NCBI GenBank assembly: GCA_965231075.1
Contig: OZ246412.1
Location: 91,903-155,902, forward strand
Direction: 5' to 3'
DNA length: 64,000 nt
Source: an uncultured Candidatus Saccharibacteria bacterium
Lineage (GTDB): Bacteria > Patescibacteriota > Minisyncoccia > RBG-13-40-8-A
The notes beneath the pieces were generated by a model, which had not been told where the DNA came from, searched no databases, and saw nothing but the letters and a program-made list of their open reading frames with translations. The position numbers were made by a program, and so were the translations under genes. Of this stretch, positions 2,011-56,395 are shown one piece after another. Position 1 is the first letter of the stretch, and the number at the start of each line of letters is the position of its first letter.

Positions 2011-2880
2011 ATGAAAATTGGATACCCGTGTATTAATTTAAGTATTGGCTGTACTGCAAATTCAACCTTTCGGTTGAAGTTTTTTTCGCGCGAAAATCTA
2101 ATAAGAAAAGTAAATAACAACCTAGAATGTTTACAAAAAATATTAGAGTTTAACGTTGAAAATAATATTTTATTTTTTCGCATTGGTTCGGGTTTAGTTC
2201 CATTTGCTTCGCACGAAATTTGCGAATTTAATTGGCAAAAACATTTTAAGAAGAAATTATTGCAAATCGGAAAATATATTAAAAAACACGAAATAAGAAT
2301 TTCTATGCATCCGGATCAATTCGTTTTGATTAATGCCAAAGACCCTAAAATAATCGAAAAAAGTTTCCAAGAGTTAAAATATCATTGCGATGTTTTAGAT
2401 TTAATGGGGCTGGATTCGACGGCGAAGATACAAATTCATGTTGGAGGAGCGTACGGGGACAAAAAAACTTCAATGGTTAGATTTGTTGATAATTATAAAA
2501 AACTCCCTAATAATATTAAAAAAAGATTAGTGATTGAAAACGACGATAAATTGTACAATTTAAAGGATTGTTTATCTATTAATAAGCAGACAAAAATACC
2601 AATTCTATTAGATATTTTTCATCATCAGTGTCTAAATAGCGGAGAGTCAACTAAGAGCGCGATTGTTTTTGCCAGTAAGACATGGAAAAAGAAAGACGGA
2701 GTTTTGATGGTTGATTATAGCAATCAAAGAGAAAATGCGCGCAGAGGCACGCATATTGAACATATCGACTTAAGACAATATAAAAACTTTTTGAAACAAT
2801 CTAAAGATTTAAAATTCGATTTGATGTTAGAAATAAAAGATAAAGAAAAAAGTGCGTTAGAGGTTATAAATTTAAAATAA
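2011..2880 (+). CDS. uvdE: UV damage endonuclease UvdE family
   Basis: IGYPCINLSIG, RISMHPDQFVLINA, IHVGGAYGDK and RLVIENDD motifs typical of UVDE. Confidence 0.75.
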   Translation: MKIGYPCINLSIGCTANSTFRLKFFSRENLIRKVNNNLECLQKILEFNVENNILFFRIGSGLVPFASHEICEFNWQKHFKKKLLQIGKYIKKHEIRISMHPDQFVLINAKDPKIIEKSFQELKYHCDVLDLMGLDSTAKIQIHVGGAYGDKKTSMVRFVDNYKKLPNNIKKRLVIENDDKLYNLKDCLSINKQTKIPILLDIFHHQCLNSGESTKSAIVFASKTWKKKDGVLMVDYSNQRENARRGTHIEHIDLRQYKNFLKQSKDLKFDLMLEIKDKEKSALEVINLK

Positions 2881-4055: not shown

Positions 4056-5897
4056 ATGAAAAAAATTATGAACGAAGGCGAACATTTTCTCCACAAAAAA
4101 TATTCTGACCTCCACACTTCTCAACCCGTAGAACACGCACAACAAGAGAAAAAGAAAAAAGGAGAGTCAACATCACAAAAACCAGCAGATAAAATATCTG
4201 ACTTTCTTGAAGTAATTAAAAGAACCCACGGTCATCACGATGATCCACAAGTATTAGAAAGAATCAAAGAATATTATCATAAACAATACGTCATTAATCC
4301 CGAAGACGTCCCCGAATCATATTTTGATAATCAAAAACGTCTAGCCAGAGAACAAGGACACGGAGATATTGAAATCACCGACGAGATGCGAAAACAGGCC
4401 ACAGAGATAATCATTACCGACCAAGAATCAACTTTAGACAATTGGACGGAATATCTTTCTTCCAAAGATGCTGATGTTTATCCGGTCTGGGCAAGATACT
4501 GGGCATTCAGAAGCATGGTTAATCTTTCCACCTACGACAAAGAAAAGAAAGTATTCTCCAAACGAAAAAAAGATACAGTTGCTCCTTTTCCCGATTTAAA
4601 TCGTGAAGCATTGGCCAATGTCGTAGATATTATTACTAAAAAAGCAAAAAAAGAAAAAATATCATTAGCCGAAGATAATCCAGAATTACAAGAACTAATC
4701 AATCAAGAAAACTTCGGCAAGCTTTATGCTTACGCCATAGAAAAGATTACACCCACCGAAGTTAATGAATTAGAGATAACTGAAGGTAAATGGGTAAAAT
4801 ACAAACAAAATTCAGATCATATGCCATTGGTAGAATCTTTACAAGGATTTGGCACTGGTTGGTGCACAGCAGGAGAGTCAACGGCCGAGGCACAACTTAA
4901 AGGAGGTGATTTCTACGTCTATTACTCTAACAACAAACAAGGCAAGCCAATTATTCCCAGAATTGCTATCAGAATGCAGGGAAGCGAAATCGGAGAGGTG
5001 AGAGGCATTGCTCCAGATCAAAACTTAGATCCATACGTTAACGATATCGTTAAACAAAAACTACAACAGTTTCCTGACGGTAAACTTTACGAAAAGAAAC
5101 AAGCGGATATGAGGAAACTTACAGAAATCGATAACAAAAACAAAAAACAACAAGAATTAACCAAAGACGATTTAATTTTTCTTTACGAAATCGATTCTCC
5201 GATTCAAGGCTTCGGTTATCAAACCGATCCAAGAATAGTAGAAATACGAAAAACCAGGAATCCAATACAAGATGCACCAATTGTTTTTGAATGTGAGCCA
5301 AGTCAAATTGCCCACAATCAACAAGAAATCAATGAAAATACCAAAGCATATATTGGTCCGTTATTCGAAAATATTTTTCAATTAAATTTAGAGCACATTT
5401 ATACATCATTTCCGGAAAACAAAATCAGAAAGATGGAGACAACGATTGGAGGAAAAGACAAGACACAACTTTTAAAAGAGTTAAAAAAGAACAAAATCAA
5501 TATTGGTGATAATGCCGAATACATGATTAAGAGTGGTGATTTTACAACCTCCAAAAAACAAGAACAAATACAATTAATACGTTTAACAGTTGGTGACCTC
5601 GGTTTTCCAAATAGTGCCACAACACAACAAATATTCGATAAGGCCGAAAAATTAGGCCTAGAACTGTGTCCGGCGGAAACAGGTCCAAATTTACGACTAA
5701 ATTATTTAGATCAACCATTGGGAGAATGGTTTCGAATTGCGATGAAACAAATTACTGATGCCGATGGCTTCCCTCACGTGTTCAATCTGCATCACGTTGG
5801 CAGTGGTCTGTGGTTGGATGACTATTGGGCCCGTCCTGTCATCATGTGGAATTCTGCCCACAAGTTCGTATTCCGCTTTCGCAAGTTGAAAACTTAG
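4056..5897 (+). CDS. DGR target protein (613 aa) with C-terminal variable region
   Basis: Long ORF with no recognisable signal peptide. Its last ~45 codons (ITDADGFPHVFNLHHVGSGLWLDDYWARPVIMWNSAHKFVFRFRK) are an adenine-mutated copy of the TR. Confidence 0.8.
   Translation: MKKIMNEGEHFLHKKYSDLHTSQPVEHAQQEKKKKGESTSQKPADKISDFLEVIKRTHGHHDDPQVLERIKEYYHKQYVINPEDVPESYFDNQKRLAREQGHGDIEITDEMRKQATEIIITDQESTLDNWTEYLSSKDADVYPVWARYWAFRSMVNLSTYDKEKKVFSKRKKDTVAPFPDLNREALANVVDIITKKAKKEKISLAEDNPELQELINQENFGKLYAYAIEKITPTEVNELEITEGKWVKYKQNSDHMPLVESLQGFGTGWCTAGESTAEAQLKGGDFYVYYSNNKQGKPIIPRIAIRMQGSEIGEVRGIAPDQNLDPYVNDIVKQKLQQFPDGKLYEKKQADMRKLTEIDNKNKKQQELTKDDLIFLYEIDSPIQGFGYQTDPRIVEIRKTRNPIQDAPIVFECEPSQIAHNQQEINENTKAYIGPLFENIFQLNLEHIYTSFPENKIRKMETTIGGKDKTQLLKELKKNKINIGDNAEYMIKSGDFTTSKKQEQIQLIRLTVGDLGFPNSATTQQIFDKAEKLGLELCPAETGPNLRLNYLDQPLGEWFRIAMKQITDADGFPHVFNLHHVGSGLWLDDYWARPVIMWNSAHKFVFRFRKLKT
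5751..5886 (+). repeat. DGR variable region (VR)
   Basis: ~136 bp nearly identical to 6239..6376. Differences in the unambiguous core all fall at positions where the TR has A (VR has T, C or G), mostly in TR AAC codons. The 3' ~35 bp (gtggaattctg...ttccgctttcg) is conserved and IMH-like. Boundary nucleotides at each end are ambiguous. Confidence 0.8.
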
Positions 5898-6008
5898 AAA
5901 CCTTAAAGCTTTATAATTTAGTTTCTTTGATGCTTTGGTTCTTTGACACTTTGAAATTTTGTAGTTTTTTGATAAGATTGAATTGGGTAAATTGCATTGG
6001 ACGGTTGC

Positions 6009-6031
6009 GCCTGCTTTCTGGCAGACAGGGC
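6009..6031 (+). other. hairpin 1 between VR and TR
   Basis: gcctgctttctggcagacagggc, imperfect stem cctg..tctg/caga..cagg, followed by a T-rich run. Confidence 0.4.
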
Positions 6032-6080
6032 TTTTCAAAATTTTCTCAACAAACATAAATTGAGAGCGCAAACGGCTAAG

Positions 6081-6108
6081 CCTGCCTGTCGGCAGACAGG
6101 GTTTTTTG
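6081..6108 (+). terminator. intrinsic terminator-like hairpin 2 (stem shared with hairpin 1)
   Basis: cctgtc-ggca-gacagg stem-loop followed by ttttttg. Confidence 0.5.
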
Positions 6109-6238
6109 CGGAGTAGTTTATGTTTTGTTTCAAAAAAGAAAAAACTTGGTATATCGTGCTGGTTGATTTTAGATCACAAATAAAATACAGCCCAACATCT
6201 TAAAATTATGTGGGCAGTGCTATAGATGGCACGATATA

Positions 6239-6376
6239 TATAACTGATGCCGATGGCAACCCTAACGTGTTCAATCTGAATCACGATGACAATGGTCTGT
6301 GGTTGAATGACAATTGGGCCAATCCTGACAACAAGTGGAATTCTGACAACAAGTTCGTATTCCGCTTTCGAAAGTA
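6239..6376 (+). repeat. DGR template region (TR)
   Basis: Adenine-rich invariant copy of the VR. Sits in spurious ORF 6210..6596, where AAC (Asn) codons replace the varied VR codons. Confidence 0.8.
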
Positions 6377-6391
6377 TTATCTTTTCCGTGC

Positions 6392-6760
6392 TTATAAGGC
6401 ACGGTTTTTCTTTTCTGGATTATTTAAACTTTTTAGCCAACCACCAAATATTTTTCCAATTTCGTCTAACTTTAGTGCGATTTCTTCACATTGTTTGTGT
6501 GATATTAATTTACTCGTCCATGCCACAGAAACGAGAAACTTGAGAGCGTCCAATAAAAGAATACACTTTGGGATATTGGTTATTTTTATTTCTTGATTAG
6601 AAAAATAAGTCGTGTAAGTTAACTCCAAAAAATCCAAAAGCTTATTCTCTATTCTTTCGCCAATAGTATAACGATTGTGTTTCGGCATATGCGGAATAAT
6701 ATTTAGCCATATTAAATACGCTTCTTTGATTCTTTCCAAAATAGAAGTATTATTTGTCAT
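6392..6760 (-). CDS. avd: DGR accessory variability determinant (Avd, four-helix-bundle protein)
   Basis: 122 aa with the pattern ERIKEAYLIWLNIIPHMPKHNRYTIGERIENKLLDFLEL...ALKLDEIGKIFGGWLKSL, typical of bAvd / four-helix-bundle proteins. Lies between TR and RT. Confidence 0.75.
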   Translation of the reverse strand: MTNNTSILERIKEAYLIWLNIIPHMPKHNRYTIGERIENKLLDFLELTYTTYFSNQEIKITNIPKCILLLDALKFLVSVAWTSKLISHKQCEEIALKLDEIGKIFGGWLKSLNNPEKKNRAL

Positions 6761-7765
6761 ATGTATAATAATATCATATCAATTGAAAACTTGCTTTTAT
6801 CGTGGCAAGAATTTTTAAGAGGCAAGCGTAAAAGAAAAGATGTGGCGGAATTCTCTTTGAAGTTTTTTGATAATATTATAAAACTTCATCAAGAATTAAA
6901 ATTAAAAACCTATAAACATGGCGGGTATCAGGCGTTTAAAATAAATGATCCAAAACCACGCGATATCCACAAGGCCAGTGTTCACGATAGATTGGTTCAT
7001 CACGCCATATATCGAATTTTATATCCACATTTTGATAAAAAGTTCATTTTTGACTCCTATTCTTGCCGTTTAGAAAAAGGCACACACAAGGCGATAAATC
7101 GTTTTAGGAGTTATTATCGAAAGGTTAGCAAAAACAACACCAAAACTTGCTGGATTTTAAAATGCGATATTAGAAAATTTTTTGCTAACATAGATCATCA
7201 GGTTCTTAAAGATGTTTTGGCAAGACACATTAAAGATAAAAATGTTTTATGGCTCTTGGCACAAATTATTGACAGCTTTAATACGGAAAAGAAGAATGAC
7301 GTTGGCCTTCCGTTGGGCAATTTGACCAGCCAGCTTTTCGTAAATATTTATATGAACGAATTTGATCAATTCATTAAAAGAAATTTGAAAATCACACATT
7401 ATATTCGTTATGCGGACGATTTTATTGTTTTACACACGAACAAATCATATTTGGAAGCGATAATTATCATAATGTTTAAGTTTTTGAAAGAACAATTAAA
7501 GCTCGACCTGCATCCTGATAAAATTTTTATAAAAACTCTGTTTTCGGGAATTGATTTTTTGGGCTGGGTTAATTTTTATTATCATCGAATATTGCGAACC
7601 GCAACAAAACGTAGAATGTTAAGGAATATTAACAATAAACTTGAACCAGGGAGCATTGCATCGTATTTAGGATTGCTTTCGCACGGAAACACTTATGAGC
7701 TTTCGTCTCTTTTGACTTTATTATTTTTAAGGTATAATGATAAGTACGATGACAATTCAGGATAA
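6761..7765 (+). CDS. DGR reverse transcriptase
   Basis: RT motifs present, including YADDF (YxDD). Motif 4 reads LPLGNLTSQLF, the DGR-type replacement for the group II intron QGxxxSP. N-terminus has the DGR-RT-like IENLLLSWQEFLRGKRKRKDV. Confidence 0.9.
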   Translation: MYNNIISIENLLLSWQEFLRGKRKRKDVAEFSLKFFDNIIKLHQELKLKTYKHGGYQAFKINDPKPRDIHKASVHDRLVHHAIYRILYPHFDKKFIFDSYSCRLEKGTHKAINRFRSYYRKVSKNNTKTCWILKCDIRKFFANIDHQVLKDVLARHIKDKNVLWLLAQIIDSFNTEKKNDVGLPLGNLTSQLFVNIYMNEFDQFIKRNLKITHYIRYADDFIVLHTNKSYLEAIIIIMFKFLKEQLKLDLHPDKIFIKTLFSGIDFLGWVNFYYHRILRTATKRRMLRNINNKLEPGSIASYLGLLSHGNTYELSSLLTLLFLRYNDKYDDNSG

Positions 7766-8793
7766 AATTGAAGATTTAAAAATTAAGACCCGCCAAATGG
7801 CGGACTGTCTTTGATTTAGAAAACAAAAAACAAAGAATTATTCAATTAGAAATTTTAACCCAAGAAGGAAATTTTTGGAAGGACAGTCAAAAGGCAGCAA
7901 AAATAAGCAAGGAATTGGCGGAGCTAAGAGAAGAGGTTGATATTTGGAACGGACTAGAAAAAGACTTAATCGGGATAAAAGATGAATCAATGTTATCTGC
8001 TTGGGAAGAAAGATTTAAAAAAGAAGAATTTAAGGCACTGTTTTCGGGAAAATACGACAGAAAAAATGCAATTGTTTCCATCTATTCTGGTGCCGGCGGG
8101 ACAGAAGCACAGGATTGGGCGAACATGCTACTGCGAATGTATTCGCGTTATGCCGAAAAACACAACTTAAAATACAAATTAATTGATATTAGTTTTGGAC
8201 AGGAAGCGGGAATTAAAAACGCAGTTTTAGAGATTGATGGTGCATATGTGTATGGATATTTAAAAAAAGAAAATGGCGTGCATCGCTTAGTTAGACAGTC
8301 GCCATTCAATTCTGATAATTTAAGACACACATCATTTGCCTTGGTAGAGGTTTTGCCGGAGATTGGCAAAGACGTTGAATCGGAAATCGAAATTAAACCA
8401 GACGACCTAAAAATTGATACTTTTCGTTCTTCGGGTCCGGGTGGACAGAATGTAAATATGCGTTCAACTGCAATTAGAATCACTCACTTACCAACGAAAT
8501 TGGTGGTTGCTTGTCAGGGAGAAAGAAGTCAGGCACAGAATCGAGAAAGGGCAATGAGTATTCTTTACACGAAAATCTATCAAAAAAAACTTCAAGAGGC
8601 AGCTGAAGAAAAGAAAGAAATTCGCGGAGAGCTCCCGTCTGTAGAGTGGGGAAGTCAGATTCGTTCTTATGTTTTACATCCCTATAAAATGGTTAAAGAT
8701 CACAGAACAGAAATAGAAAGTTCTCACCCAGAAGAGGTTTTAGATGGAGATTTAGACGAATTTATAGAAGCAGAGATAAAAATCAAAAATTAA
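7749..8793 (+). CDS. prfB: peptide chain release factor 2 with programmed +1 ribosomal frameshift (frame 0: 7749..7811; frame +1: 7813..8793)
   Basis: The downstream ORF has the SPF tripeptide and GGQ motifs but lacks an N-terminus. The upstream frame MTIQDKIEDLKIKTRQMADCL ends at CTT TGA T (7809-7815), the classic RF2 CUU-UGA shift site. The +1 frame continues DLENKKQRIIQLEIL..., parallel to E. coli RF2. Start could also be ATG 7737. Confidence 0.8.
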
Positions 8794-22547: not shown

Positions 22548-24332
22548 ATGGAAACGAGAAACATTGCAATTATTGCCCACGTTGATCATGGTAAGACCAC
22601 CCTTACCAACGCTTTAATGCATCAAACGGGGATGGCCGACGAAAATGTGAATATGGATTCTGATGCGTTGGAATTGGAACGAGGAATTACGATCTATTCA
22701 AAAAATACGTCGGTTTTTTATCGTGACTCCAAAATAAACATTGTTGATACTCCTGGTCATGCCGATTTTAGTTCAGAAGTAGAACGAATCTTAAGATCAA
22801 TTGATAGTGTTTTGTTGTTAGTTGATGCTCAAGAGGGACCAATGCCACAAACAAAATTTGTTTTAAAAAAATCATTAGAACTGGGACTAAAACCAATTGT
22901 TGTAATTAATAAAATTGACAAACCCGCCGCTAGACCAGAAGAAGTTCACGAAATGGTTTATGAATTATTTTTGGACTTGGGTGCAAATGACGAACAATTA
23001 AATTTTAAAACTGTTTATGCTTCATCAAGAGAGGGAACCGCGAAACTACATTTAAACGACGAATCGAAAAATTTAAACCCATTATTAGACATAATTTTAA
23101 ATAATGTTTCTCCGGCATCGACCCCGGAAATGGAAGAAAGGCCACTGACTGCCCAACCATTCAATTTGGCTTATGACAATTTTTTAGGTCGTTGTGCAAT
23201 TTGTAGGATTTATTCAGGAAAAATAAAGAACAATCAAGAAGTGATTATCAAAAATTCAAGCAAAGAACCAAGGAAATTTAAAATTATAAAACTTTTTACT
23301 TTTAATGGTTTAAATCGACAAGAAGTAAACGAAGCCGTTGCTGGAGATATCGTGATGATTGCCGGACTCACGGACATTGAAATAGGGGAGACAATTGTTG
23401 AAAACGTAAACCAAGAATTGCTTCCGGCTATTAAAATTGATGAACCCACAATTTCTTTAAATTTTTTAGTGAACAATTCTCCCTTTGCCGGGAAAGAAGG
23501 AAAATTTGTAACCAGCAGACAAATCAAAGAGAGGCTCAAAAAAGAATTAGAGGTCAACGTAGGGCTAAAAATAGATTTTTCAAACGTGCATTATTCAAAA
23601 GTTTTTGGGAGAGGGGAATTACACATTGCAATTTTACTTGAGAATTTGAGACGCGAGGGATATGAACTACAAGTTTCAAAACCGCAAGCAATTATCAGAG
23701 AAGAAAATGGTAAAAAACTAGAACCATTCGAAGAGGTTTTGATTGATGTTCCAGAAAGTTTATCGGGAACGGTAATTGAAAAATTGTCCAAAAGAAGAGG
23801 TCAGCTCACAGACATAAAAACAAAAAACAAGCAGACAAGATTAACGTTTAAAATTCCTACACGTGGACTTTTAGGTTATCGTAGCGAATTTGTTGTCGAT
23901 ACAAAAGGAATGGGAATCTTGTGTGCTCATTTTCTTGGTTTTGATGATTATGCTGGTGATATTTCTAGAAAAGAAATTGGTTCAATGATTTCAATGATAA
24001 CCGGTAAAGCGGCGGGATTCGCCCTTTGGAATCTACAAGAACGCGGAGTGATTTATATCGGACACGGAGATGATGTTTATGAGGGAATGATTATTGGTAA
24101 TACGCCAACCGGTTTTGACATGGAAGTTAATCCCACCAAGGGAAAACAATTAACCAATATGCGTGCTTCTGGTTCAGACGAGGCAATTTGTTTGATTCCG
24201 CCATGGGAAATAACATTAGAAAGGGGATTGAGCATTATTAATGACGACGAGTATATGGAAGTAACCCCCAAAAATATTCGCCTAAGAAAACAACATTTAA
24301 CCGAAAACGAGAGAAAAAAAGCAAAGCGATAA
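22548..24332 (+). CDS. typA: translational GTPase TypA/BipA
   Basis: RNIAIIAHVDHGKTTL G1 motif, DTPGHADF, NKIDK. Length and domain order match BipA. Confidence 0.9.
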   Translation: METRNIAIIAHVDHGKTTLTNALMHQTGMADENVNMDSDALELERGITIYSKNTSVFYRDSKINIVDTPGHADFSSEVERILRSIDSVLLLVDAQEGPMPQTKFVLKKSLELGLKPIVVINKIDKPAARPEEVHEMVYELFLDLGANDEQLNFKTVYASSREGTAKLHLNDESKNLNPLLDIILNNVSPASTPEMEERPLTAQPFNLAYDNFLGRCAICRIYSGKIKNNQEVIIKNSSKEPRKFKIIKLFTFNGLNRQEVNEAVAGDIVMIAGLTDIEIGETIVENVNQELLPAIKIDEPTISLNFLVNNSPFAGKEGKFVTSRQIKERLKKELEVNVGLKIDFSNVHYSKVFGRGELHIAILLENLRREGYELQVSKPQAIIREENGKKLEPFEEVLIDVPESLSGTVIEKLSKRRGQLTDIKTKNKQTRLTFKIPTRGLLGYRSEFVVDTKGMGILCAHFLGFDDYAGDISRKEIGSMISMITGKAAGFALWNLQERGVIYIGHGDDVYEGMIIGNTPTGFDMEVNPTKGKQLTNMRASGSDEAICLIPPWEITLERGLSIINDDEYMEVTPKNIRLRKQHLTENERKKAKR

Positions 24333-50691: not shown

Positions 50692-51426
50692 TTATTCTCC
50701 CTTCTGGAATTTTTTGATAACCGGATAAAAATTACCGTTGATAATGTCTTCAATGTTATGCCATTCTTTTTTGATGCGATGGTCGGTGATGCGATCTTGG
50801 GGGAAGTTATAAGTGCGAATTTTTTCTGATCTATCAGCGGTGCCAATTTGTGCGTTTCTTTCTTGTCCCAACTTTTGAATATCTTTCTGTGCCAAGAATG
50901 CGAAAAGCCGTGAACGCAATAAGTTCATGGCTGTTTCTTTATTTGCGGCTTGACTGCGTTCGCGTTGAGAGGCAACGACAAACCCCGATGGAATATGTGT
51001 AATTCTGATTGCAGATTCAGTTTTGTTTACATATTGTCCGCCTGGTCCCGAAGAACGAAAAGTATCAATTTTTAAATCACTGGGCTTAATTTCAAATTCC
51101 TTGGGCTCGACATAGGGGAGTACGGCTACTGATGCGGTAGAAGTATGGATTCTGCCATTCTTTTCTGTTTCAGGAATTCTTTGTACGCGATGAACTCCGC
51201 CTTCTTGTTTTAGTAAATTATAGACATCAGTGCCAGAAATTTGAAAACTAATTTCTTTAATTCCTCTGGGCCCGGATTCGCTAGACTCCAAAACTCTTAC
51301 TTTCCAGCCTTGTTTTTCAGCAAAACGAGAATACATTCGATATAAATCAGCAGCAAAAATGGCGGCTTCATCGCCACCAGCCCCAGCTCTAATCTCTATA
51401 ATTATGCTGTTAGGATTAGCACTCAT
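50692..51426 (-). CDS. prfA: peptide chain release factor 1 lacking N-terminal domain 1
   Basis: PxT-type tripeptide (RIPETE, PET), GGQ (SGPGGQYVNKTESAIRITHIP) and C-terminal domain present. Only 244 aa, beginning at domain 2 (MSANPNSIIIEIRAGAGGDEAA). rpmE lies immediately upstream, so there is no room for the missing ~110 aa. Confidence 0.7.
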   Translation of the reverse strand: MSANPNSIIIEIRAGAGGDEAAIFAADLYRMYSRFAEKQGWKVRVLESSESGPRGIKEISFQISGTDVYNLLKQEGGVHRVQRIPETEKNGRIHTSTASVAVLPYVEPKEFEIKPSDLKIDTFRSSGPGGQYVNKTESAIRITHIPSGFVVASQRERSQAANKETAMNLLRSRLFAFLAQKDIQKLGQERNAQIGTADRSEKIRTYNFPQDRITDHRIKKEWHNIEDIINGNFYPVIKKFQKGE

Positions 51427-51439
51427 AAATTAATAAAAT

Positions 51440-51649
51440 TTATTTTGTTTTCTTGGCTAATCGCTTCTTGAATTTATCAACACGTCCAGCAGCGTCAACG
51501 ATTTTGTCTTGGCCAGTGTAAAAGGGGTGACAAGCACTACAAACCTCGACATTGATTTCGGGCTTGGTTGCGCCCATCTTAAAGATTTTGCCACAACCAC
51601 AACGCACTGTTGCGTCGCTGTAATACTTTGGGTGAATATCTTTTTTCAT
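51440..51649 (-). CDS. rpmE: 50S ribosomal protein L31
   Basis: MKKDIHPKY...C.C...C..CHPFYTG zinc-ribbon pattern. Confidence 0.85.
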
Positions 51650-52545: not shown

Positions 52546-52995
52546 ATGATATCAGCAGATATAGTTAAACAATTAAGAGAAAAAACAGGCGCATCAATGA
52601 TGGATTGTAAAAAGGCCCTCGAAGAAGCCAGTGGTGACGAAGCAAAGGCGATGGAAATTTTGAAAGGAAACAATAAGCTCACAGCAATGAAAAAAGCCGA
52701 AAGAGTTGCCAATCAAGGCTTAATAGAGGCATATATTCATGCTAATGGCAAGATTGGTGTTTTGCTAGAAATAAAATGTGAAACTGATTTTGTCGCCAAA
52801 AACGAAGAATTTAAAGAATTGGCACACGAAATCGCCATGCATATTGCGGGAATGGACTCAAAAGACCCAGATTCATTATTGTCTGAACCATTTATCAAAA
52901 ATCCTTCAATTACCGTTAAAGATTTAATCGAAGCAAAAATTGGTAAATTAGGAGAGAACATGAGGGTAGAAAAATTTATAAGATACGAATTATAA
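52546..52995 (+). CDS. tsf: elongation factor Ts (short form)
   Basis: UBA-like N-terminus (VKQLREKTGASMMDCKKALEEA), then the dimerisation core. 149 aa. Confidence 0.8.
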   Translation: MISADIVKQLREKTGASMMDCKKALEEASGDEAKAMEILKGNNKLTAMKKAERVANQGLIEAYIHANGKIGVLLEIKCETDFVAKNEEFKELAHEIAMHIAGMDSKDPDSLLSEPFIKNPSITVKDLIEAKIGKLGENMRVEKFIRYEL

Positions 52996-53008: not shown

Positions 53009-53356
53009 ATGGTTATTATTTTTCAGATTCTTTTGGGGTTAGGTATTGCAGGGCTTCTTGTTTTAATTTTTAAAAAGATCCCTGTTATTTTAAATTATCC
53101 GCGCAAGCCATACGAAAACACTTCTCTGAAAGATAGAATCAAGGAAAGGGTAGGAGCGTTAAAAGAAAAAACAGGAGAAAGCGATTTTTTGCACAAATCA
53201 ATTATTCCTAATTTGGAAAAATTCTTAAGGAAATTCAATGTTTTTGTTTTAAGGCTTCATAATTTTTCTGCGAAAATAGTTAATCATTTACGCAAAAAGA
53301 AACAAGAAAAGATAGAGCAAAACGAAGAGAATAATGACCTAGATTTGCCATCTTAG
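53009..53356 (+). CDS. hypothetical membrane protein
   Basis: One N-terminal TM, K/E-rich tail. The 3' end overlaps tRNA-Thr by 10 nt, so the end is uncertain. Confidence 0.3.
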   Translation: MVIIFQILLGLGIAGLLVLIFKKIPVILNYPRKPYENTSLKDRIKERVGALKEKTGESDFLHKSIIPNLEKFLRKFNVFVLRLHNFSAKIVNHLRKKKQEKIEQNEENNDLDLPS

Positions 53357-53418
53357 CTCAGCGGCAGAGCAACTGTTTTGTAAACAGTAGGTCCTCGGTT
53401 CAAATCCGAGAGATGGCT
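53347..53418 (+). tRNA. tRNA-Thr (anticodon TGT)
   Basis: Acceptor GCCATCT/AGATGGC, anticodon stem ACTGT/ACAGT with loop TTTGTAA, short variable arm (so not Tyr), T-arm CTCGG-TTCAAAT-CCGAG. Confidence 0.8.
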
Positions 53419-53423
53419 TTTGG

Positions 53424-53505
53424 GGGAGCGTCGCATAGCGGCTATTGCAACAGACTGTAAATCTGTCGCCTCACGGCTTCGGTGGTTCGAGTCCACCCGC
53501 TCCCA
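53424..53505 (+). tRNA. tRNA-Tyr (anticodon GTA)
   Basis: Acceptor GGGAGCG/CGCTCCC, anticodon stem ACAGA/TCTGT with loop CTGTAAA, long variable arm, T-arm GGTGG-TTCGAGT-CCACC. Confidence 0.75.
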
Positions 53506-53513
53506 TTCGACTT

Positions 53514-53584
53514 GCCGACGTAGCTCAGTGGTAGAGCGCCTCCATGGTAAGGAGTAGGTCGTGAGTCCAATTCTCACCGTCGGC
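53514..53584 (+). tRNA. tRNA-Thr (anticodon GGT)
   Basis: Acceptor GCCGACG/CGTCGGC, anticodon loop ATGGTAA, T-arm GTGAG-TCCAATT-CTCAC. Confidence 0.75.
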
Positions 53585-53595
53585 TTATAATAAGC

Positions 53596-53636
53596 CCCGA
53601 CGTATAAGTCGGGGTCCCGACCAAAGCGTCGGGATA
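53596..53636. repeat. two tandem GC-rich hairpin repeats (CCCCGAC-N6-GTCGGGG family)
   Basis: gccccgacgtataagtcgggg and tcccgaccaaagcgtcggga, between the tRNA array and rpmG. Confidence 0.6.
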
Positions 53637-53648
53637 AATAAAATATAT

Positions 53649-53807
53649 ATGAAAAAAGACTTTACCGTAAAATTAGCTTGTGAAAAGTGTAAGCGCGTCA
53701 ATCATTTTACTCGCAGAAATAAAAAAACTGTTGAGAAAAAATTAGAGCTTTCAAAGTTTTGCAAGTGGTGTAGAAAAAACACCAAACATAAGGAAGCGAA
53801 AAAATAA
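53649..53807 (+). CDS. rpmG: 50S ribosomal protein L33
   Basis: 52 aa: MKKDFTVKLACEKCKRVNHFTRRNKKTVEKKLELSKFCKWCRKNTKHKEAKK. Four-Cys zinc ribbon typical of L33. Below the ORF-track cut-off. Confidence 0.85.
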   Translation: MKKDFTVKLACEKCKRVNHFTRRNKKTVEKKLELSKFCKWCRKNTKHKEAKK

Positions 53808-53812
53808 TTCGC

Positions 53813-53882
53813 GAGGGGGTGTAGTTTAGTGGTAAAACGATGGTCTCCAACCCCGCAGCTGCGGGGCGATTCCTTCCGGGAC
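53813..53882 (+). other. degenerate tRNA-Trp-like element with embedded CCCCGC-AGCT-GCGGGG palindrome
   Basis: Shares the D-arm and anticodon 5' half (tgtagtttagtggtaaaacgatggtctccaa) with tRNA-Trp at 54148. The anticodon 3' stem and T-arm 5' part are replaced by ccccgcagctgcgggg. The acceptor strands are not complementary, so it cannot fold as a tRNA. Confidence 0.5.
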
Positions 53883-53896
53883 ATAATATTATTATT

Positions 53897-54157
53897 ATGA
53901 TGTATTATGTTTATATTCTTAGAAGTTTAAAAGATAAAAGATTGTATATTGGATATACTTCTGATTTAAAATTACGATACAAAGAACATTGCGATGGCAT
54001 GGTTAAATCCACTGCGAACAGAAGACCGCTAGAGTTAATCTATTATGAGGCCTATAAAAACGAAAAAGACGCGAGAAATAGAGAAAAATACTTAAAAGGC
54101 GGTGGCAAGGCACATAATAATTTAAAACAACAAATCGAAAATAGTATGGGCCTGTAG
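53897..54157 (+). CDS. GIY-YIG nuclease family protein (~86 aa)
   Basis: MMYYVYILRSLKDKRLYIGYTSDLKLRYKEH...NRRPLELIYYEAYKNEKDARNREKYLKGGG carries the GIY...YIG, Arg and Glu/Asn core. The ORF-track N-terminal extension reads through the tRNA-like element and was trimmed. Stop overlaps the first nucleotides of tRNA-Trp. Confidence 0.7.
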   Translation: MMYYVYILRSLKDKRLYIGYTSDLKLRYKEHCDGMVKSTANRRPLELIYYEAYKNEKDARNREKYLKGGGKAHNNLKQQIENSMGL

Positions 54158-54218
54158 TTTAGTGGTAGAACGATGGTCTCCAAAACCATTGGTGGGAGTC
54201 CGATTCTCTCCAGGCCCG
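54148..54218 (+). tRNA. tRNA-Trp (anticodon CCA)
   Basis: Acceptor GGGCCTG/CAGGCCC, anticodon stem ATGGT/ACCAT with loop CTCCAAA, T-arm GGGAG-TCCGATT-CTCTC, discriminator G. Confidence 0.8.
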
Positions 54219-54227
54219 ATTGCTTGA

Positions 54228-55450: not shown

Positions 55451-55966
55451 ATGTTAACAAAAAAACAAAAACAGGAAATTGTCGAAGAATTGGCTGGCAA
55501 GATTAAGCGCCAAAAATCTTTGATTTTTACCGATGCCAAGGGAGTCAAGGTTAAAGACGTTCAGGCGGTAAGAAAAGAGTTGAAAAAATTAGATGCCGAA
55601 TATAAAGTCGCAAAAAAAACTTTAATTGATTTGGCTCTAAAAAAAGAGGGCAAAGAAATAAATCTATCTGAATTTAGTGGATCTTTGGCCTCGAGTTTTG
55701 GATACAACGATCCAATATCTTTAATCAAGGTTCTTACCAAACTAGCTAAAACCAATGATAAGTTTAAAATCTTGGGTGGTATGGTTGAGGGCAGAGTTCT
55801 GTCGGCGTCAGAAATCAAAGAATTATCAAAAATTCCTTCTAAAGAAATTTTATTGGCCAAGTTGGTTGGTTCAATAAAAAGTCCAATCAGTGGTTTTGCA
55901 AATGTGTTGCAAGGAAATCTAAGGAATTTAGTGGGCGTGTTAAACGCAATTAAGGATAATAAATAA
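55451..55966 (+). CDS. rplJ: 50S ribosomal protein L10
   Basis: MLTKKQKQEIVEEL...TDAKGVKV...R pattern. Followed by rplL. Confidence 0.85.
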   Translation: MLTKKQKQEIVEELAGKIKRQKSLIFTDAKGVKVKDVQAVRKELKKLDAEYKVAKKTLIDLALKKEGKEINLSEFSGSLASSFGYNDPISLIKVLTKLAKTNDKFKILGGMVEGRVLSASEIKELSKIPSKEILLAKLVGSIKSPISGFANVLQGNLRNLVGVLNAIKDNK

Positions 55967-55984
55967 TTAACATTAAACAAACAC

Positions 55985-56395
55985 ATGACTGAAGAAAAAA
56001 AAGATGTTCAAGTTCCCGAAAAATTCAAAAAATTAGTCGATGAAATTGAAAAAATGACTGTTATGGATTTATCGGAACTTGTAAAAGTTTTAGAAGAAAA
56101 ATTTGGAGTTAGCGCGATGGCTGCTATGCCAATGATGGCTGGTGGTGCCGCTGGCGGTGGTGAACCCGCAGAGAAAGCCGAAAAAACAGCTTTTAATGTT
56201 GAATTAAAAGCGGCTGGAGATCAAAAAATTCAAGTAATTAAAATTGTCGGTGAAATTACCGGACTTGGGTTAAAAGAATCGAAGGCAATTGTTGACGGCG
56301 CTCCAAAGATTATTAAAGAAAACGTAAAGAAAGAAGAAGCCGAAGAAATGAAGACCAAATTGGAAGGCGTCGGCGCAACCGTGGAATTAAAATAA
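55985..56395 (+). CDS. rplL: 50S ribosomal protein L7/L12
   Basis: Ala/Gly-rich hinge ([15 protein letters not shown]), C-terminal [29 protein letters not shown]...[10 protein letters not shown]. Confidence 0.9.

Follow-up and report, generated by a model that had tools for sequence, protein, structure and literature searches.

In a 64 kb part of a small genome of the candidate phyla radiation (CPR, Patescibacteria) (contig OZ246412.1; 36% G+C; referred to here as the window) the gene for peptide chain release factor 1 (RF1), prfA, lies directly downstream of rpmE, the gene for ribosomal protein L31, and encodes a protein of only 244 residues (Table 1). The protein begins with an ATG codon, its N-terminus reads MSANPNSIIIEIRAGAGGDEA, and it consists of the decoding and catalytic portion of RF1 alone. 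The neighbours of the gene are rpmE and an SLT-domain gene. Two class-I release factor genes were found in the window by tblastn, this prfA and a prfB encoding RF2. A preliminary description of the locus, made from the sequence alone, had proposed that the protein is of RF1 type by its PET and GGQ motifs, that it starts at the boundary of domain 2, that rpmE immediately upstream leaves domain 1 truly absent and that a frameshift-regulated RF2 coexists with it; each of these points held up on closer analysis.

Table 1. Coordinates in the window of prfA, prfB and the other features discussed, and the groups of related loci (P and L numbers are our labels for proteins and loci)
Feature	Position	Strand	Description	Basis
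prfA	50692..51426	-	RF1, 244 aa; domains 2-4 only, no domain 1 or LPKDP linker	ORF, Pfam, PDB alignment
PET codons	51166..51174	-	residues 85-87; RF1-type PxT 'tripeptide anticodon'	sequence read directly
GGQ codons	51034..51042	-	residues 129-131; peptidyl-tRNA hydrolysis motif	sequence read directly
RF1 C-terminal tail	50692-50730		short basic tail	
Spacer	51427..51439	-	13 nt, AT-rich, rpmE stop (TAA) to prfA ATG	sequence
rpmE	51440..51649	-	L31, 69 aa, intact, directly upstream of prfA	Pfam Ribosomal_L31 1-64 of 65, E=8e-31
prfB	7737..8793	+	RF2, 351 aa after +1 frameshift; SPF and GGQ, domain 1 kept	tblastn, reconstruction, PDB alignment
prfB frameshift site	7809..7814	+	CTT TGA, programmed +1	sequence
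Diversity-generating retroelement	4056-7765		immediately upstream of prfB	
Retroelement target ORF	4056-5897	+	613 aa, no Pfam match	
Variable repeat (VR)	5744-5886		3' end of target ORF	
Template repeat (TR)	6233-6375			
Retroelement reverse transcriptase ORF	6761-7765	+	334 aa, RVT_1, YADD; 3' end overlaps prfB start	
bipA/typA	22548-24332		BipA/TypA	
EF-Ts gene	52546-52995	+	149 aa	
tRNA cluster	53347-54219		Thr, Tyr, Thr, Trp	
GIY-YIG ORF	53840-54157		105 aa	
rplJ, rplL	55451-56395		L10, L7/L12	
ORF with E=0.05 tblastn match	2011-2880		289 aa	
Loci with <=20 residues before IxEIRAG (20)			L001, L002, L004-L007, L009, L011, L017-L019, L021, L022, L024, L029, L031, L032, L038, L043, L044	
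Staskawiczbacteria-type loci (8)			26-36-residue N-terminus with conserved motif: L003, L014, L020, L023, L025-L027, L036	
Loci and proteins with two-helix remnant			L046; P0068, P0079, P0090 (302-307 aa); ~55-67 residues, last two domain-1 helices	
CPR loci keeping domain 1			96-115 residues: Moraniibacteriota L008, L010, L028; Falkowbacteria L037; L013, L015, L033-L035	

The RF1 core and the sequence upstream of it

Evidence for the identity of the 244-residue protein came from several profile and structure searches. Pfam returned only positions 99-194 of the 194 of the PCRF model, together with a complete RF-1 catalytic domain (PF00472 positions 4-116 of 116, E=2e-40). When the protein was aligned to PDB chains with phmmer, residues 7-242 matched Thermus thermophilus RF1 106-341, spans of equal length with no net gap, residues 7-237 matched Escherichia coli RF1 110-341 and residues 7-240 matched Thermotoga maritima RF1 87-320; from the first of these alignments a query residue number plus 99 gives the T. 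thermophilus number. RF1 chains scored highest, at 240-300 bits, against approximately 170 for RF2 and 59 for PrfH. The top two NCBIfam models were the prfA equivalogs NF001859 (372.2 bits) and TIGR00019 (361.9 bits), matched only over model positions 104-339 and 110-347 respectively, and because domain 1 is missing both scores fall below the equivalog cutoffs of 400 and 423.25 bits. The remaining scores were 254 bits for prfB, 101 for PrfH (cutoff 166.65) and 43 for ArfB (cutoff 100). Canonical RF1s (T. thermophilus, T. maritima, E. coli) thus have domains 2-4 in common with the window protein at 48-64% identity, including the PxT motif, GGQ and the switch loop, but differ in possessing an N-terminal helical domain 1 of approximately 100-110 residues and the LPKDP linker.

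The PxT motif is of RF1 type, with SPF found instead in the RF2 of the window. An alignment of 35 truncated RF1 homologues had a mean column identity of 79%, and G17, E20, Q82, P85, T87, H94, T95, G129, G130 and Q131 were invariant in it, as were R190, Q193, I194, G195, R199 and E201 of the switch loop. The T. thermophilus equivalents of the first group are G116, E119, Q181, P184, T186, H193, T194 and GGQ 228-230, which in the 70S-RF1 structures are reportedly responsible for decoding the stop codon and for catalysis of hydrolysis (Laurberg et al. 2008). An AlphaFold2 (AF2) model of the protein (mean predicted local distance difference test score, pLDDT, 80) was compared with known structures by Foldseek. 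Against ribosome-bound T. thermophilus RF1 the template modelling (TM) score was 0.91-0.92 with a root-mean-square deviation (rmsd) of 1.9 Å over 237-238 columns, and for the ribosome-bound T. thermophilus and E. coli chains together the ranges were 0.89-0.92 and 1.9-2.0 Å over approximately 237 columns. The model is closer to this open conformation than to the closed crystal forms; several of the best-matching ribosome-bound chains were deposited in PDB at only 242-260 residues, approximately the size of domains 2-4. Judged by its sequence, the 244-residue protein retains all the parts for stop-codon reading and peptidyl-tRNA hydrolysis, namely PxT, the GxxE of the alpha-5 tip, Q82/H94/T95, the switch loop and GGQ, and the full conservation of the responsible residues suggests that it would read UAA and UAG and hydrolyse peptidyl-tRNA.

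A need for such an activity is indicated by the stop codons of the 64 confidently long open reading frames (ORFs) of the window, of which 44 are TAA, 11 TGA and 9 TAG; with TAG ending nine genes, a UAG-reading factor is required. This bears on the idea that the gene is decaying because RF1 is becoming dispensable, for example through loss or reassignment of UAG. Reassignment of a stop codon with loss of a release factor does exist in other CPR lineages, the Gracilibacteria and Absconditabacteria having reassigned a stop codon and lost RF2. Against decay in the window stand both the use of TAG as a stop and the strong conservation of the truncated homologues, in which the catalytic and decoding residues are all invariant, and we regard it as vanishingly improbable.

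The C-termini of these proteins also vary. RF1s without domain 1 end in a short basic tail of 5-11 residues past the last core helix (consensus PIIKAFKK), whereas most full-length RF1s, in the 80 related loci described below as in the canonical proteins, carry a mainly acidic helical extension of 15-21 residues. The short tail tracks the loss of domain 1 only partly, as some full-length CPR RF1s are also short-tailed.

The sequence upstream of the gene leaves no place for a missing N-terminus. In addition to the intact rpmE ending 13 nt away there is an in-frame TAA two codons ahead of the prfA ATG, within the spacer, and so there is no room in any frame for approximately 100 further codons; a hidden upstream exon or frame was rejected on these grounds. 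A read-through fusion of L31 to RF1 was likewise rejected, since the two genes are in different frames (counted from first base to first base, the rpmE stop codon and the ATG are 16 nt apart), and the length of the spacer and even the orientation of rpmE vary among relatives. No obvious Shine-Dalgarno sequence was seen in the spacer, and translational coupling of prfA to rpmE is plausible. In the closest metagenome-assembled genome (MAG; locus L081, GCA_043807255.1, a 103 kb contig), whose RF1 is 94% identical, the gene order is the same: S2, L31, a 14 nt gap, a 244-residue RF1 and a convergent SLT-domain gene.

These observations also bear on the possibility that a sequencing frameshift, a mis-assembly or a wrong start call conceals a normal N-terminal domain. 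A few homologues are annotated at 289-292 residues (P0052 and P0097), and in other phyla many of the short RF1 cluster representatives are fragments from contig edges or calls with a frameshift. By eye, however, the N-terminal extensions of P0052 and P0097 resemble an out-of-frame translation of rpmE and are likely start-call errors; no upstream in-frame extension exists in the window, and the same protein of 230-251 residues is present in more than 100 independent assemblies, which excludes chance and mis-assembly. With 28 species-level genomes in agreement and two different gene arrangements among them, an artefact appears extremely unlikely.

A further alternative is that the protein is an accessory paralogue, a rescue or specialised factor similar to PrfH or ArfB, acting beside a full-length prfA elsewhere in the genome, of which just 64 kb were covered. 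According to two sources (PMC1586002, PMC6514570), PrfH is also without domain 1 and keeps the decoding domain and GGQ. It differs in its altered decoding motifs, its pairing with RtcB and its accessory role, whereas the window protein has a canonical PxT and canonical RF1 decoding residues and no RtcB-like gene is adjacent to it. ArfB, ICT1 and C12orf65 similarly have the GGQ catalytic domain and no domain 1, but are without the codon-recognition domains 2 and 4, both present in the window protein, and make use of a basic C-terminal tail. The prfA scores far exceed those for PrfH and ArfB, and the window contains no class-I factor other than prfA and prfB. Moreover the gene occupies a conserved slot: most of the 80 related loci, those with full-length RF1 included, have rpmE ahead of prfA, in CPR and non-CPR bacteria alike, and this synteny supports orthology. 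No second RF1 locus from assemblies with a truncated RF1 was present among these best 80 loci, which is weak evidence. Taken together these findings make an accessory paralogue unlikely. The favoured reading, to which we would give a probability of roughly 80%, is that the 244-residue protein is the orthologous and functional prfA product, most likely the sole class-I factor reading UAG and UAA, and that the whole N-terminal helical domain 1 has been lost in evolution.

Distribution among relatives and a reduction series

The preliminary description had treated the truncation as a feature of one genome. Instead a whole lineage shares it, and intermediate forms exist in relatives. Among the closest homologues, defined as the best 120 matches (65-94% identity) among 5.8 billion proteins searched, 111 are 230-251 residues long; their sources are assemblies of NCBI, JGI, ENA and Logan, and those with a name belong to Portnoybacteria or the 'Patescibacteria group'. 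The label given to the truncated homologues by PGAP is 'PCRF domain-containing protein', in keeping with a prfA score below threshold. A survey of RF1 lengths was made with related loci, the best 80 found when one genome of each GTDB species was scanned; in each locus the reading frame leading into the conserved core was derived anew. Domain 1 is absent in 28 of the 80: in 20 there are no more than 20 residues before the IxEIRAG strand, the criterion for this class, and the other eight are of a Staskawiczbacteria type. It is kept in full by Moraniibacteriota, Falkowbacteria and other CPR loci (Table 1). Controls that are clearly outside CPR and have the 5' end intact, among them Thermotogota, Eremiobacterota, Acidaminococcaceae and Ignavibacteriota, all keep domain 1, with the exceptions of L055, where the call is shorter, and L076, where a contig end cuts the gene. 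Loss of domain 1 is therefore not general to CPR; RF1 without it is a trait of a subgroup of Patescibacteria of Parcubacteria/Paceibacteria type that includes Portnoybacteria-like and Staskawiczbacteria-like genomes.

Truncated RF1 genes occur in two arrangements. In the first, found in the window type and in 'cluster B', rpmE shares the strand of prfA and lies 21-88 nt before the core, and in the second, the Staskawiczbacteria type, rpmE is divergent and 57-250 nt away. Neither has room for domain 1, whereas in most same-strand cases with a full-length RF1 the end of rpmE is approximately 350-800 nt ahead of the core. When 1.84 billion cluster representatives were searched exhaustively with HMMER, one representative, P0053, covered the whole window-type clade, and further short or reduced forms were found among mostly full-length RF1 representatives (P0277, of 232 residues, and P0245, P0261, P0263 and P0296). 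Some representatives of 345-376 residues aligned from residue 1-10 and raised the possibility that the protein is circularly permuted and domain 1 has come to lie at the C-terminus. The idea was rejected, since the C-terminal extensions of these representatives proved to be fusions or Arg/Pro/Gly-rich junk from frameshifts and the N-termini belong to contig-edge fragments. A single-protein neighbour-joining tree of the RF1 core (100 bootstraps) supported cluster B at 100%, cluster A at 29%, a grouping of A with B at 19% and one of cluster B with its full-length neighbours at 10%, and on these values a single loss of domain 1 and multiple losses are not separated.

Relatives of the window protein display a series of reduction from the full domain of four helices, through a two-helix remnant and a conserved motif of 14 residues in the Staskawiczbacteria type, to nothing in the window. 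The remnant forms (Table 1) point to a stepwise reduction of domain 1 within the group. Intermediate RF1s also include P0261, P0263 and P0296, and this set spans 287-317 residues with a remnant of approximately 50-70. In Staskawiczbacteria-type RF1s (266-293 residues; P0121-P0240) the sequence D[FY][ST]KFTAEDWKNY[KR]P stands at the extreme N-terminus in place of domain 1; it is near-invariant, in 118 of 120 homologues, and is followed by a variable acidic or Ser-rich linker. AF2 did not dock this motif onto the RF1 body (pLDDT approximately 50), and for this reason the model suggests that it may be a tethered linear motif to which a partner in trans binds.

It could be argued that domain 1 has not been lost but persists as a small protein of its own, joining the core in trans. 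PMC1586002 describes domain 1 as a loosely attached, flexible module, and its sequence is so poorly conserved that a separate copy would be hard to detect. A hidden Markov model (HMM) built from 48 RF1 N-terminal domains was run against all six-frame segments of the window and gave no credible match, the best being rpsB (E=0.016) and the N-terminus of RF2 (E=0.07); as RF2's own domain 1 reached only this value the sensitivity of the search is low. Nor did tblastn of the window with the reduced N-termini of close relatives find anything under E=0.05; the match at E=0.05 itself is inside an ORF that by eye resembles a UV-damage/AP-type endonuclease. The two-helix remnants and the 14-residue motif point to progressive loss and not to relocation, and a split gene seems very unlikely.

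RF3, RF2 and termination without domain 1

Domain 1 is thought to serve mainly in RF3-mediated recycling and in contact with the L11 stalk. Much of what can be said about its absence derives from engineered E. coli factors (Mora, Zavialov, Ehrenberg & Buckingham 2003, Mol Microbiol 50:1467), as described in PMC1586002. RF1 and RF2 without the N-terminal domain, RF1 so reduced having the same domain 2-4 architecture as the window protein, kept codon specificity and peptide release, and the truncated RF1 worked in vivo, but neither could promote nucleotide exchange on RF3 (Mora et al. 2003 via PMC1586002). In the summary of that work and the reviewer comments there, domain 1 seemingly matters more for RF2 than for RF1, the truncation of RF2 being tolerated less well. 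The E. coli construct was made in the laboratory, in a species possessing RF3, whereas the deletion of the window type has been fixed by evolution in a whole lineage, together with further changes in the sequence.

The RF2 of the window is informative in this respect. Frame 0 of prfB closes as MADCL* at a TGA, and the +1 frame goes on as DLENKK..., in register with RF2. Residues 6-349 of the reconstructed 351-residue protein align to residues 6-363 of RF2 in PDB (E=3e-96) with a short deletion within domain 1 only. In the window, therefore, RF2 keeps domain 1 and RF1 has lost it, which mirrors the asymmetry seen in the laboratory with E. coli; the bacteria used as controls have the domain in both factors.

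The region immediately upstream of prfB is occupied by a diversity-generating retroelement (Table 1). Its two 143-nt repeats are 85% identical, the second copy lying 489 nt downstream, and 18 of the 21 mismatches between VR and TR are at adenines of the downstream (template) copy.

The preliminary description had also proposed altered recycling of the termination factor, possibly linked to absence of RF3. The first part is reasonable given the E. coli truncations, which release peptide but do not stimulate exchange on RF3; the second does not suffice as an explanation. The bacteria Bacillus, Mycobacterium, Mycoplasma and Chlamydia, which are without RF3, retain a full-length RF1. Because this is so, in Bacillus, Mycoplasma and Chlamydia for example, loss of RF3 alone is insufficient to explain truncation of RF1. 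It has been shown that RF3 is absent in 72 of 191 genomes, those of the four genera included (PMC1780047), and in E. coli without RF3 the dissociation of RF1 is approximately tenfold slower than that of RF2 (PMC10287982). According to a prediction of Margus et al., class-I factors that bind more weakly could offset the absence of RF3 (PMC1780047). In the window no prfC was found, the sole translational GTPase there being BipA/TypA; the rest of the genome lies outside this search. No methyltransferase with the NPPY motif (PrmC) was found in the window either.

How a factor of this kind might act can be suggested. The 244-residue RF1 would be an ordinary cellular RF1 pared to its tRNA-mimic core, reading UAA and UAG and freeing the peptide as usual. 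Without domain 1, and by analogy with the E. coli work, it would be out of reach of the L11 stalk and GTPase-associated centre and would have no partnership with RF3; it would therefore have to leave the post-termination ribosome spontaneously, or through ribosome rotation and recycling. The smaller binding interface would be expected to quicken its release, and a quick-release RF1 would correspond to the solution of Margus et al., in which weaker binding compensates for having no RF3.

Several points weigh against this account. According to a reviewer comment in PMC1586002, RF1 was reported inactive on E. coli ribosomes without L11, the contact site of domain 1, and in the light of this the loss of domain 1 may not be neutral. 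The step to quicker release is purely one that we infer. Finally, with 64 kb of the genome covered, a second full-length prfA, a prfC or a free domain-1 protein could sit elsewhere, although the conserved gene order, the canonical decoding residues and the series of reduced forms make a second prfA or a domain 1 in trans unlikely.

A broader and more tentative reading joins these threads. It may be that domain 1 of RF1 was dismantled stepwise in a subgroup of Parcubacteria-type Patescibacteria, that UAG/UAA termination in these organisms proceeds without L11-stalk contact and RF3, and that in the branch with the 14-residue motif this new peptide took over a role in docking or recruitment, whether at the ribosome or at another partner. 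We consider this possible but doubtful.

Other genes of the window for translation components may be mentioned here. The genes rplJ and rplL are preceded by YceG and not by the genes for L11 and L1, so that the L11 gene, whose product is the partner of the missing RF1 domain, must be located elsewhere. EF-Ts is of only 149 residues and matches positions 1-76 of the 204 of the Pfam EF_TS model; as the homologue in the closest MAG is also of 149 residues this is not an artefact, and EF-Ts is a second shortened translation factor. Within a cluster of four tRNA genes, slightly overlapping that for tRNA-Trp, is a GIY-YIG ORF that may be homing-endonuclease-like or the remnant of a mobile element.

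Significance of a natural RF1 core

No description of an N-terminally truncated RF1 in CPR or Patescibacteria, and nothing on prfC in CPR, was found in the full-text literature searched. In the excerpted portions of a survey of release-factor evolution (PMC6514570) no such RF1 forms occur, and the only bacterial forms there without domain 1 are PrfH and ArfB. The kind of protein and the dispensability of domain 1 are already known; what appears to be undescribed in the literature searched is a natural, lineage-wide loss from RF1 only, with intermediates. There is a practical consequence for annotation, as the combination of a sub-threshold prfA score and the label 'PCRF domain-containing protein' may lead completeness and metabolic surveys of CPR to count RF1 wrongly as missing.

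With the lineage-wide deletion from RF1 alone, evolution has in effect repeated the deletion experiment made in E. coli, and the difference between RF1 and RF2 observed in the laboratory holds in nature too. Natural minimal RF1s of this kind are material for biochemistry and cryo-electron microscopy of RF3-independent termination, and they give a direct test of the prediction that weaker binding of the release factor compensates for an absent RF3. If the stepwise dismantling set out above were true, these bacteria would possess a naturally evolved minimal termination system and, in one branch, a new motif for the recruitment of factors.

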